DNA from: Nitrososphaerales archaeon
GTDB lineage: Archaea > Thermoproteota > Nitrososphaeria > Nitrososphaerales > UBA213
Direction of reading: 5' to 3'
Assembly: GCA_965197925.1 (NCBI GenBank)
Contig: CBDAOC010000020.1
Span: forward strand, 128,001-192,000
Length of the DNA stretch: 64,000 bases
The notes under the pieces are model-generated. The model was not told the DNA's origin and ran no database searches. It saw only the letters and a program-made list of their open reading frames with translations. The position numbers were made by a program, and so were the translations under genes. Numbering within the stretch: position 1 is the first letter of the stretch; the number at the start of each line of letters is the position of its first letter. Positions 36,263 through 60,030 of the stretch are shown here, one piece after another.

Positions 36263-36581
36263 CGGTAGTAGGTAGGGCCAGGGTGTTAGCCGTACCCTTT
36301 ACTCGAAACCGGCTTCATGCGAGGATCAGTAACCGTCAGGTAAATCCGTAGTTGATATGTACTTACTGACTTTGCTTATATGAACCCACGCCGTGATGGG
36401 TGCTTGCAGGTAACAGACCATCTGAAGGGATGGTGCTGATCATCGAACCGCCGAAAGGGGTGAGGTCCGGGAGGGAGCAACCCTAAGGTGGAGTAGGCAC
36501 GCTGTCACGTCTACGTGGTGGATCTTGCGATGTCAGAGATTTGGCTTATTGTCTACGGCGGAACTGATGGAACTACTACCG
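36263..36581 (+). ncRNA. ffs: Archaeal SRP (7S) RNA
   Basis: Complementary ends cggtagtag / ctactaccg; helix 8 GGGU-GAGG-UCC-GGGA-GGG-AGCA-ACCC; GC-rich, about 320 nt. Confidence 0.9.
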
Positions 36582-52995: not shown

Positions 52996-53095
52996 TGCGG
53001 GAGGTGGGATTTGAACCCACGAACCCCTGAGAGACGAGGTTTCCCAAGGTATCTATCTGAGCCTCGCGCCTTTGACCATGCTTGGCAACTCCCGC
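52996..53095 (-). tRNA. tRNA-Leu(CAG) with 15-nt intron at 37/38 (53041-53055)
   Basis: Cloverleaf GCGGGAG...CUCCCGC with long variable arm; BHB CUCA[GA/U]AG-AUAC-CU UGGG[AA/A]. Confidence 0.93.
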
Positions 53096-54625: not shown

Positions 54626-55741
54626 TTATTCCTTTCCAAATTCCTTTTCTAATTCTATAAACAATGATTTTTGTCTATCATTCAACTTTGTAGGAAGCTT
54701 CACGTAAACTCTAACCAATTCATCACCCCTTCCATAACCGTCATTTTTTGGTAACCCTTTTCCTTTAATTCGCAAGACAGTATCCGGCTGTGTTCCCTGG
54801 GGAATTTTTATTAATGTGTTACCATCAAGCGTTGGTACTCTTACTTCAGCACCTAGCGCGAGCTTCGAGATTGATAATTCCATTTCGTATAATAAATCGC
54901 TATTGGATCGTTTGAAAATGTCATGAGGTTTTACCTGTACTTTTATGTATAAGTCACCACTAGCACCACCGTTTGAGTGCTCGCCTGCACCTTCGATTTT
55001 CAACATATTATCATCTTCAACACCCGCCGGTATCTTGAATCGCAATTTTTGGGGTTTTCTTACATGGCCTCTACCCTTACATGTCTTGCACGGTTTGTCA
55101 ATTATCAAGCCTTCACCACTACAAGTTCTGCATGGTTCAACCGTAACGAAGGTAGAAAACCTCGACTGATTCATAACATGCCTAACTTGACCTTTACCAT
55201 TGCATATAGAACAAGTTCTAGGCCTCGTTCCAGGTGCACTACGACTTCCCTTACATTCATCACAATTAACAGTTGTATACACCTCGATCTCTTGTTCTAC
55301 TCCATGTAGAACATCTTCAAGAGTCAACTCAGCTTCATAGACAAGGTCTTGACCACGTCTATTAGTGCCAAAACCAAATGGGTCACCCCTTCCAGAAAAT
55401 ATGTTAAATATATCCTTGAAACCAAAATTACCAAATCCAAACCCTATATCTTTGAATATTTCTTCAAAATTGGCTTCTGACCCTCTGAAGATATCTTGTT
55501 GGCTTGAATATCTTCCTGATAACCCTTCATACCCATATGTGTCATACAATTGCCTCTTTTCAGTGCTGGATAACACTGCATAAGCTTCAGAAATCTCCTT
55601 GAATTTGTCTTCGGCTTCCGGTGCCTTATTTCTATCAGGGTGATACCTTAATGCTAACTTTCTATATTCTTTCTTGATCTCATCAGCACTTGCATTTTTA
55701 GATACACCTAAGACTTCATAATAATCTCTCTTGTTGCTCAT
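54626..55741 (-). CDS. dnaJ: Chaperone DnaJ
   Basis: HPD J-domain; four CxxCxG zinc-finger repeats. Confidence 0.96.
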
Positions 55742-57705
55742 TGCTGTTCCTGCTTGCCTTCTTCAGTACCTGTAGTCTGGTCTTGGCTTGCTCCTGTAGT
55801 CTGGTCTTGGCTTGCTCCTGTAGTCTGGTCTTGGCTTGCTCCTGTAGTCTGGTCTTGGCTTGCTCCTGTAGTCTGGTCTTGGCTTGCTCCTGTAGTCTGG
55901 TCTTGGCTTGCTCCTGTAGTCTGGTCTTGGCTTGCTCCTGTAGTCTTTCCTGCTGCCTGATAAACCTGTGCGCTTACCTCACCTAAAATATTTTTTAGTT
56001 CTTGAATTTTTGTTTTCAAGGTATTGATATCACTACCAATCACTGCTTTCATAGCAGCAACCGCTGTATTGATCTGTTCTGTCTGTTCGCTTGTAAGCTT
56101 ATCTTTAAGATCTTGTTTGACCAATTTCTCCGCAGTATAAATCAAATTATCAGCTTCGTTTCCACTTTCCGCGTCTTCCTTCCTCTTTTTATCTTCCTCA
56201 GCGAATTGGTCAGATTCTTTCTTTAGTTTCTCTATCTCCTCCTTCGAAAGTTTTGTGGTTGCCGATATAGTTATCTTCTGTTCCTTCGCAGTTGCAAGAT
56301 CCTTTGCAGATACATGTAGTATCCCGTTGGAATCTATATCAAATGTAACTTCTATTTGTGGAACACTTCTTGGAGCAGGAGGAATTCCATCGAGGTTGAA
56401 CATTCCCAATGATATGTTATCAGCCGCCATCGATCTCTCACCCTGCACAATATGTATTGTGACCGAAGTCTGATAATCTGCAGCAGTTGTAAATATCTTG
56501 CTCTTCTTCACAGGTATAGTTGTGTTACGCTCTATCACTGGTTCACGTAAACCACCAAGAACCTCTACTCCAAGCGTTAGTGGGGTTACATCTAACAGTA
56601 CAATATCCTTTGAAATATCTCCCCCAATAATTGCACCCTGTATTGCAGCACCAATAGCTACTGCTTCCATTGGATCTACTCCTCCTTCGGCTTCCTTACC
56701 CATCACTTCTGCCACAAATTTAAGTAGAATTGGCATTCGAGTTGGCCCGCCTATTAAAATAATTTTATCAACTTGATCTGGCTTTAGTTGTGCATCTCCC
56801 AATGCTTGCATAATAGATGATTTGCAACGCCCAACTATCGGCCTAACAATATCCTCCAATGTAGAGCGGGTAGATTGCATTGTTAGGTTCTTGGGAGAGT
56901 TGGTAGACTTATCATATGAGATAAATGGTAAATTAATTTCTGTAGTCATAGTTGATGATAATTCTATTTTCGCCTTTTCTGCAGCTTCCCTTATTCTGGT
57001 CATAGCGGTTCTATCACTGGTTAGATCCGTACCACTTTCTTCTCTAAACTTGTTAATTATGTCATCTACCAACACATTATCCATGTCTGTACCACCGAGT
57101 TGTGTATCACCTGATGTACTTTTCACTTCAAATACACCACCGCCCAACTCCATTATAGTAACATCTAAAGTACCTCCTCCAAAATCAAAGACCATTATCT
57201 TCAGATCCTTCTCTGCCTTGTCAAGACCATAAGCTAGGGAAGCAGCTGTTGGCTCATTGATTATCCTTACAACTTCCAAACCTGCAATAGTACCCGCATC
57301 TTTAGTGGCTTGCCTTTGATTATCATTAAAATATGCAGGAACAGTTATCACTGCTTTATCGACAGGTTCGCCCAAAAAGGTTTCCGCATCTTTCTTGATC
57401 TTCTGTAGTATAAATGCCGAAATTTGTTGTGGTGTGTATTCCTTTCCATAAACTCTGAACTTGAAGTCAGAGCCCATCTTGCGTTTTGCTGCAATAACCG
57501 TACCGCCAGGATTGGTTACAATTTGCCTTCTTGCAGGTTCACCAACCAGTAGCTCCCCATCTTTGGTTAGAGCAACTACAGAAGGAAAAGCCTTTCCACC
57601 CAGAGTTACCCCTTCAGCAGCAGGTATAATAGTAGGTTTGCCACCAACTATAACTGCCGCTGCACAATTGCTAGTACCCAAATCTATACCAATTATCTTG
57701 CCCAT
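55738..57705 (-). CDS. dnaK: Chaperone DnaK
   Basis: [32 protein letters not shown]. Confidence 0.97.
55769..55946. repeat. 24-bp perfect tandem repeat, about 7.4 copies, encoding (TTGASQDQ)n in the DnaK tail
   Basis: Unit cctgtagtctggtcttggcttgct. Confidence 0.95.
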
Positions 57706-57710
57706 ACAAA

Positions 57711-58235
57711 TCATTCCTCATCAGGTTTAATATTAATTTTCTTTGAAATTTCTACTAGGCTAGGTCTTACAACTCTACTCCTTGACATATATCCTTTCCT
57801 GATCTCTGCGGTGATAGTATTTTCTAAATATTCATCGTTATCTATGAAGAATACAGCTTCGTGTATACTAGGATCGAATTTTTTGCCAACGGCATCTATT
57901 TCCTTAATTCCTTCCTCTTTCAGAGTGAAATCAAGATTCTTAAGGATTGATTCCAAACCGTTAACTAGTTCTGGATTGTCTCCACTCTTCACAGTTTCCA
58001 TTGCACGGATATAATCATCTTTCAATTCAATCAGTTTAATTAAAAATCTTTCAATCTCTTTCCTTAACATTATTTCTGATTCCCTTTCAACTTGTTTCCT
58101 ATAATTTTGATATTCTGCAAGAAGATATTGGTATTTGTTATGATACTCTTCAGCGTCAGCTTGCTTTCTCATTAATTGTTCCTTGAGTGTTTCTATTTCT
58201 CCATCATCATTGGTTTCCACCAAGCCAATCACCAA
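57711..58235 (-). CDS. grpE: Nucleotide exchange factor GrpE
   Basis: [20 protein letters not shown]...RPSLV. Confidence 0.93.
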
Positions 58236-59421: not shown

Positions 59422-59698
59422 CTCAGCCAAATCATTTTTTAAGGAATGTATCTGCACTAAAAGCTTTTCACATGCACAATTCTGTATTATTGCACAGTTG
59501 ATATTTGCGTGACCGTTTAGCACATATTAGTATTGAATTTCAATATGATGAGTAACCGGAGAAGAACTGGAAAAAATATGACTACATAAATGAGGCTTTA
59601 ACAACCTTTATTCCTTAGGATAATCATGTATTTGTATACGGGATCAGTATATCAAGTAAAATTATAAGGATGAGAATGAGTAAGACGAATGGCCCGGA

Positions 59699-59792
59699 AG
59701 CCCGGTGGAGAATCACTTTATTCGCCGAATGTAGCGGTCAAGCATAGGGGCCTTTGGAGCCCTTGACCCCAGTTCGAGTCTGGGCCGGGCTA
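59699..59792 (+). tRNA. tRNA-Gln(UUG) with 21-nt intron between positions 10 and 11 (59709-59729)
   Basis: Removing AGAATCACTTTATTCGCCGAA gives a complete cloverleaf AGCCCGG-TG-GTGT...CT TTG GA...TTCGAGT...CCGGGCT-A; junctions form a BHB. Confidence 0.9.
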
Positions 59793-59821
59793 CTTTCAAT
59801 ATATAGTCCCTCTTAGCACCG

Positions 59822-60030
59822 GGCTCTGTAGAAACCATACTATAAAGACAGTCATTCTGTGCATATTGTAGGCAATTACCCTAAATGTAAATTCCCTGTT
59901 CTGCATCTTAGCAAGTCTTGATGTCGCATACTCTCCAAACATTCTCTTTGTCACTAAAAATGTAGTCTTATTCTTGTTCCTTTGATAGCAAAGTTGTTTG
60001 TAGAATCTCCTCTTCATATGCTTCCGGTAT
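59822..60030 (-). mobile_element. Right-end remnant of an archaeal IS5-family element
   Basis: YQRNKNKTTFLVTKRMFGE...QNREFTFRVIAYN; end ggctctgtagaaacc. Confidence 0.75.

Follow-up and report, generated by a model that had tools for sequence, protein, structure and literature searches.

A tRNA intron that begins only 10 nt into the gene raises the question of how it can be spliced when its splice motif takes up bases of the acceptor stem. Herein, we analysed a stretch of 64,000 nt (the window) belonging to a 2.9-Mb archaeal genome bin (G000), which near-identical tRNA exons in named records suggest to be of the class Nitrososphaeria. Inspection of the sequence revealed a tRNA-Gln(UUG) gene on the + strand at 59699-59792, with 21 extra nt after G10 and without an encoded CCA (Table 1). 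Rfam RF00005 matched it with 33.4 bits over 59728-59784, covering model positions 9-63 only. ARAGORN called no tRNA anywhere in the window; when its intron search was used, it made many miscalls and still missed the tRNA-Gln(UUG) gene. Elsewhere in the window, there were a tRNA-Leu(CAG) with an anticodon-loop intron (52996-53095, -), an archaeal SRP RNA (36266-36578, +), and a protein ending in seven tandem TTGASQDQ repeats (55738-57714, -), which, from its sequence, we take to be DnaK-like.

Table 1. Locations of the tRNA-Gln(UUG) gene parts (window positions) and of other tRNA genes of the same bin (genome:contig:positions)
Feature	Location	Strand	Remarks
TATA-box-like element ATTATAAG	59661..59668	+	30 nt 5' of where the leader repeat begins
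Leader repeat of the acceptor 5' strand TGGCCCGG	59690..59697	+	Complementary to tRNA positions 66-73; proposed surrogate strand
5' exon, A1-G10 (positions 1-10)	59699..59708	+	Positions 5-8 are the central helix strand of the splice motif
21-nt intron at 10/11	59709..59729	+	Inner hairpin 59710-59713/59720-59723; GCCG 59724-59727; 3' bulge AA
3' exon, positions 11-73	59730..59792	+	Anticodon TTG 59754-59756; acceptor 3' strand and discriminator 59785-59792
tRNA-Gln(CUG) paralogue (L441)	G000:C19:495062-495191	+	10/11 intron, 8-pair leader repeat, C12 replacing G12
tRNA-Ala(GGC) (L288)	G000:C20:321470-321570	-	7/8 intron
tRNA-Ser(GCU)	G000:C19:514096-514226	+	7/8 intron, split leader repeat
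tRNA-Ile2/Met(CAU)	G000:C19:563274-563383	+	9/10 intron, 6-pair repeat
Elongator tRNA-Met (L403)	G000:C20:487570-487662	-	Leader repeat without a 5' intron; the single exception among the 33 other tRNAs

In 122 of the 251 genomes of the class, intronless orthologues (e.g. loci L007 and L015-L018) have AGCCCSGTRG running straight into TGTAG, and the insert has no alternative register, since both of its terminal bases differ from the adjoining exon bases. The intron position is therefore 10/11. An intron at 8/9 or 9/10, hinted at by the Rfam alignment starting at A9, was ruled out by the same orthologues, and the correctness of the assembly at the insert rests on this comparison as well.

The insert has the central helix, bulges and inner helix of a predicted archaeal BHB-type intron. 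Exon bases C5-G6-G7-U8 are complementary at 4/4 positions to GCCG of the intron, the inner helix GAAT/ATTC has four pairs, and the bulges are G9-G10/A on the 5' side and A-A/U11 on the 3' side. These two 3-nt bulges put the cuts at 10/intron and intron/11, and the predicted product is the junction of the intronless orthologues. Among 100,000 shuffled inserts, 0.029% had 4/4 central pairs with a 4-bp inner helix. Four of four central pairs were present in 130 of 132 distinct intron genes; of 151 related genes, 145 combined them with an inner helix (vs 0.35% of shuffles), and 147 had an inner helix of at least 2 pairs. The inserts ranged from 14 to 59 nt, with their middles free to vary. All 7 intron genes with C6 carried G at the facing intron base, a compensatory change. 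The outer pair C4-G12 is a single base pair, is replaced by C-C in L436 and the Gln(CUG) paralogue, and costs energy in the model (-30.2 with it vs -33.9 kcal/mol without it). The strict hBHBh' class calls for two or more pairs in the outer exon helix h; with one pair here, the class is HBh' (as defined by Marck and Grosjean 2003 and restated in the accessible text of bioRxiv 10.64898/2026.10.13.758758). The initial annotation, which had placed a 21-nt insert after G10, was right in coordinates and sequence, and the orthologues confirmed 10/11; every one of the pairings that it proposed (GCCG central, GAAU/AUUC inner, and the bulges) is present, and its claim that removal would restore the D-stem agrees with the orthologues. 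The outer pair that it added does exist, but with the weaknesses just described. We regard the intron as real and almost certainly spliced.

The position, which had been called rare, is a common one in this class. The 10/11 pattern matched 53 of the 251 genomes, in a search that missed inserts longer than 40 nt and whose reversed-pattern control gave 3 matches (L269 looks like such a chance match). By family, it was found in 29/30 genomes of one, 3/3 of the window's family and 14/145 of the largest. Other classes and phyla have it as well: a scan of a genome collection yielded at least 119 loci, and among the matches listed (names shown for 80 of those 119) were Nitrososphaeraceae, Nitrosopumilaceae, Bathyarchaeia, Methanomethylicia, Woesearchaeota, Nanoarchaeota and Sifarchaeum, with named genera including Nitrososphaera, Nitrosocosmicus, Nitrosarchaeum and Nitrosotalea. 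Non-canonical tRNA introns are listed at 20/21 to 59/60 and 3/4, without 10/11 or a leader helper, in the accessible text of bioRxiv 10.64898/2026.10.13.758758 and PMC4090602. According to the accessible part of PMC8450103, tRNAscan-SE 2 includes a thaumarchaeal intron model, so the 10/11 position is probably in databases and may already be catalogued.

One nucleotide upstream of the given tRNA start ends the repeat TGGCCCGG, whose duplex with positions 66-73 was calculated at -15.6 kcal/mol in tRNA-Gln(UUG). A leader duplex of -9 kcal/mol or stronger was found in 131/131 intron genes vs 8/98 intronless genes; 10 control and 8 intron loci (duplicates, cut ends or T-arm introns) were left unscored in this comparison, and of these 10 controls, 1 reached -9 when scored later; 2 more loci had short leaders. 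The same strength was reached in 18 of 19 further intron genes, the exception being L262 (-6.9). The duplex was also present in 12/12 further intron loci from other classes plus the Gln(CUG) paralogue, although some of those 12 duplicate records of the genome-collection scan and 8 of the 21 loci examined in that set were not tRNAs. The genomes are related, so the leader counts are not independent; the -9 and -10 kcal/mol thresholds are our choice, and -10 was set after seeing the data. When compared within families, intron genes had the stronger duplex in 6/6 families holding both states, with overlap only in f12, and the same was seen in genus g45, which also holds both.

Folding models were then compared with and without the leader. 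For tRNA-Gln(UUG), the probability of the central helix was 0.905 with the leader, 0.006 without it and 0.22 with shuffled leaders. The medians over 131 genes were 0.78 with their own leader, 0.003 without and 0.12 with shuffled leaders, and the helix stayed below 0.5 in 50/131 genes despite the leader. Folded alone, tRNA-Gln(UUG) kept its acceptor stem (P = 0.98) and formed no splice helix, in line with the initial inference that the acceptor stem is open during cutting. In the minimum-energy and centroid folds, the leader was paired with 66-73 and positions 5-8 were then paired with the intron; the minimum-energy fold keeps the central helix, but its 5' bulge closes into a longer hairpin. 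As explicit structures, the cloverleaf had -28.2 kcal/mol, the open splice form -15.7, and the splice form with the leader -30.2 to -33.9. In these models, the leader copy likely explains how the acceptor stem is opened. After in-silico removal of the intron, the leader still won the unconstrained folds (native acceptor stem median P 0.033), and when the arms of the spliced form were fixed, the two registers tied (-28.8 vs -28.7). Release of the stand-in is thus unexplained by secondary structure.

The same design was seen in other tRNAs of this genome. All 5 tRNAs with introns at 7/8 to 10/11, namely Gln(UUG) and Gln(CUG) (10/11), Ala(GGC) and Ser(GCU) (7/8), and Ile2/Met(CAU) (9/10), reached -10, vs 1 of 33 others (P = 1.2e-5, post hoc threshold; the base is 38 tRNA genes on non-viral contigs from an incomplete T-arm scan). 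The leader repeat was absent from this genome's tRNAs with introns at 15/16 or later. The Gln(CUG) gene apparently carries two further inserts.

For the Ala 7/8 genes, 29 distinct loci carried the repeat, and 26 of the 28 scored reached -12.5 or stronger, vs 1/12 controls; the two weaker ones were explained by mis-anchoring and distance. In 28 of the 29 repeats, there is an A opposite U70, not a copy of G3, which is not what DNA duplication would give. In the Ala(GGC) gene of this genome, leader bases -1 to -3 form an outer helix with 9-12 and a second leader element replaces the acceptor strand; a C-U mismatch interrupts the central helix, and position 33 is C, vs U33 in relatives. In 18/28 of the Ala 7/8 motifs, the central helix falls short of 4 pairs; motifs of this relaxed class turn up by chance at two-thirds of boundaries, as given in the accessible text of bioRxiv 10.64898/2026.10.13.758758. 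Duplexes of the Ser 7/8 genes (-7.9 to -12.1) overlap their controls (-9.0 to +0.3), as do those of the Ile2 9/10 genes (-6.8 to -13.4; controls -10.2 to +0.1). One further tRNA-Ser(GCU), L360 in G035, was read by eye as having its acceptor stem interrupted by an intron at 5/6; an exact repeat of 7 nt lies 21 nt upstream.

The elongator tRNA-Met is the exception noted in Table 1, and its repeat without a 5' intron was found in G000 and G008. Among related genes, which include L404-L406 and L413-L415, five combine this repeat with an intron at 8/9 and four have neither; this distribution led us to read the Met repeat as a putative relic of intron loss or a pre-adaptation enabling gain.

Considering the sequences and the models together, we think it probable that the leader copy acts as a surrogate acceptor strand, freeing bases 5-8 and tethering the 10-nt exon. 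In 94 of 148 intron genes, the repeat is preceded at 28-31 nt by the highest-scoring TATA-like word, as judged with a home-made weight matrix built on the archaeal consensus (a sigma-70-type promoter scan is not applicable here), so the repeat likely begins the transcript. For tRNA-Gln(UUG), transcription is predicted to start, likely, near 59691, about the first base of the repeat, and this would be the first step. In the second, which is modelled and whose pairing is conserved, the repeat would pair with 66-72/73, strand 1-7 would be freed, and 5-8 would pair with GCCG of the intron. A heterotetrameric EndA would then cut after G10 and before U11, as the geometry of the motif and the gene content suggest. 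The genome has two EndA genes (alpha and beta, frames of 189 and 194 aa), and the alpha subunit can be aligned with 2cv8 and 3p1z, its KPK loop coinciding with the crenarchaeal-specific loop, whose role is described in the accessible text of PMC12397907. Genes for RtcB and RNase P RNA are also present in the genome. In the fourth step, the leader helix would hold the 10-nt 5' exon to the 3' exon until joining by RtcB, with -15.0 kcal/mol as a tether vs -3.6 for the central helix alone. In the fifth and least secure step, the true strand would displace the stand-in by branch migration, and RNase P would remove the leader, fixing the mature fold. Because the leader wins or ties after splicing, finishing this hand-over would fall to tertiary folding and the irreversible RNase P cleavage. 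Of the initial interpretation, a spliceable BHB at 10/11 and an open acceptor stem stand, but rarity does not; the motif is HBh' and not the full hBHBh', and the leader copy had been missed.

Could the intron be spliced unaided, with the leader instead being an ordering device, not a folding aid, that hides the 3' strand from charging, CCA addition or RNase P for as long as the intron is in place? We consider this unlikely. It would fit with the Ala repeat, which puts A-U in place of G3-U70 (the identity pair of AlaRS) in nearly all genes, and with a leader register that is still competitive after splicing. However, such ordering would be needed just as much by the tRNAs of this genome whose introns lie at 15/16 or later, and these have no repeat; only introns with positions 1-7 in their central helix are accompanied by it, and the splice helix is not predicted to form without the leader.

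It is still less probable that the repeat has no RNA role and is a DNA-level leftover of tandem duplication or integration, or a promoter or initiator motif. Its fixed distance from the TATA box would suit such an origin, and so would its persistence in the intronless Met genes of G000 and G008 and in L150 (G119), an intronless tRNA-Gln with a perfect 8-pair leader repeat, which is possibly a recent intron loss. Against it, the repeat is kept across classes and phyla while its flanks diverge, at a spacer of 1 to 19 nt from the gene, and its sequence varies by isotype, unlike a protein-binding site. Over repeat positions 2-7 in 148 genes, there were 25 pairing-preserving changes, all C to U opposite G, and 4 that break the pair; the strand asymmetry, 25 C-to-U vs 2 G-to-A, is that expected of G-U pairing. 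The repeat also covaries with position 67, all 7 C6 genes having it changed to C or U, and in Ala it tracks the 3' strand, not the 5' strand. Judged by these substitutions, the repeat behaves like paired RNA. As for integration, the copy is 7-8 nt long and 1 nt from the gene, which differs from an attachment-site duplication, and the trace of a mobile element near the gene is a weak IS5 remnant, downstream only. This is a 73-aa frame just 3' of the tRNA (59796-60017, -) with a weak match to IS5 transposase (E 1.2e-4), likely a remnant. Upstream lie a 412-aa frame and frames that are presumably grpE-, dnaK- and dnaJ-like.

Two other readings of the repeat were rejected. The first, that it is a CCGG palindrome pairing with the 5' strand, fails in the C6 genes, in which a changed strand goes with a changed repeat. 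The second took the repeat as the true tRNA start followed by a second intron; U8 is seldom copied, the base after the repeat being U in only 8/148 genes, and the spacer is variable as given above.

Another tRNA-Gln(UUG), which the initial annotation had named as a reason for doubt if the intron gene were silent, does exist in the bin, an intronless gene at C16:25697-25772, but it lies on a viral contig, and the intron gene is the chromosomal one. Terminase, portal, head protease and tail genes were recognised on C16, a contig of its own of 150 kb (29/48 long ORFs scanned). This tailed virus (G000:C16:1-150385; L280-L287) also carries a DNA polymerase, a ribonucleotide reductase, NAMPT, a Cas4-like protein and its own tyrosyl-tRNA synthetase, as well as a tRNA array with 32 Rfam tRNA matches and CCA encoded. 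Both Gln tRNAs of C16 start with A1-U72 as the host's do, and in its Tyr tRNA, which we take to be of bacterial type, the first pair is G1-C72 and the variable arm is long. A Gln(CUG) tRNA would not read CAA, and the intron-bearing gene was the only Gln-like match in 5/5 relatives searched, two of them single-contig genomes; in cultured ammonia-oxidising archaea of the named genera, CAA appears to be read by the tRNA of this gene alone. The 18 runs annotated as RNA, or as possibly RNA, accounted for only a 0.06 share. Four contigs from RNA runs covered only the 3' exon, leaving the insert unspanned, and continued into genomic flanks that belong to other organisms, and three read an intronless junction; they are therefore DNA of relatives, uninformative on splicing. 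That the gene is silent or keeps its insert, with CAA read by another tRNA such as the one on C16, is very hard to credit: it has that intronless gene and the lack of a spliced read among those contigs in its favour, but C16 is a separate contig with viral genes, the relatives have no other Gln-like gene, and the exons are intact with a splice motif that covaries.

The proposed surrogate strand resembles known systems in part. The intron is like other non-canonical HBh' introns in its four-pair central helix, two 3-nt bulges, inner intron helix and (alpha-beta)2 EndA with a crenarchaeal-type loop, but unlike them, its central helix takes acceptor-stem bases 5-7 and so excludes the acceptor stem. 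In split tRNAs (Nanoarchaeum, Caldivirga, Aeropyrum and Staphylothermus), according to the accessible parts of PMC3218864 and PMC4033280, discarded flanking sequence likewise pairs and holds the exon pieces for EndA and ligase; there, leader and trailer pair together and the BHB spans two transcripts, whereas here there is one transcript with contiguous exons and a 21-nt insert, and the leader pairs with exon positions 66-72, far from the cut sites. Permuted tRNAs (Thermofilum pendens and Cyanidioschyzon), as described in the accessible text of PMC3218864 and PMC4090602, share an upstream-shifted promoter, an extended 5' end pairing with the other end, and RNase P action after splicing, as proposed here. 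In this gene, no 3' half lies upstream and the exon order is normal, the upstream piece being a 7-8 nt duplicate of the 5' strand. A literature search, in which positions written with a slash were not text-searchable and figures were not covered, found no description of a leader copy of the acceptor strand. Neither the 10/11 position nor a leader copy is mentioned in the accessible parts of PMC8450103, PMC4033280, PMC4090602, PMC3293823, PMC3218864, PMC11291895, PMC12397907, PMC3082918 and the Asgard preprint (bioRxiv 10.64898/2026.10.13.758758); the surrogate-leader mechanism is apparently new to print.

Leaders of tRNAs are usually treated as disposable, whereas here the leader seems to be under selection as a structural element of the splicing substrate. 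It would solve a conflict in which a 4-pair splice helix must beat a 7-pair GC-rich acceptor stem and a cut 10-nt exon must stay attached. We lean towards a general class of archaeal tRNA precursors whose first-transcribed nucleotides stand in for the acceptor strand. Acting in cis as RNA chaperone and splint, they would be required for any intron at about 5/6 to 10/11, decide where such introns can be gained, and force splicing before 5' maturation. The leader repeat is also a cheap signature for 5'-proximal introns that ARAGORN misses, and the proposal is directly testable in cultured ammonia-oxidising archaea of the named genera. It would yield a rule on the positions at which introns can persist in archaeal tRNAs.
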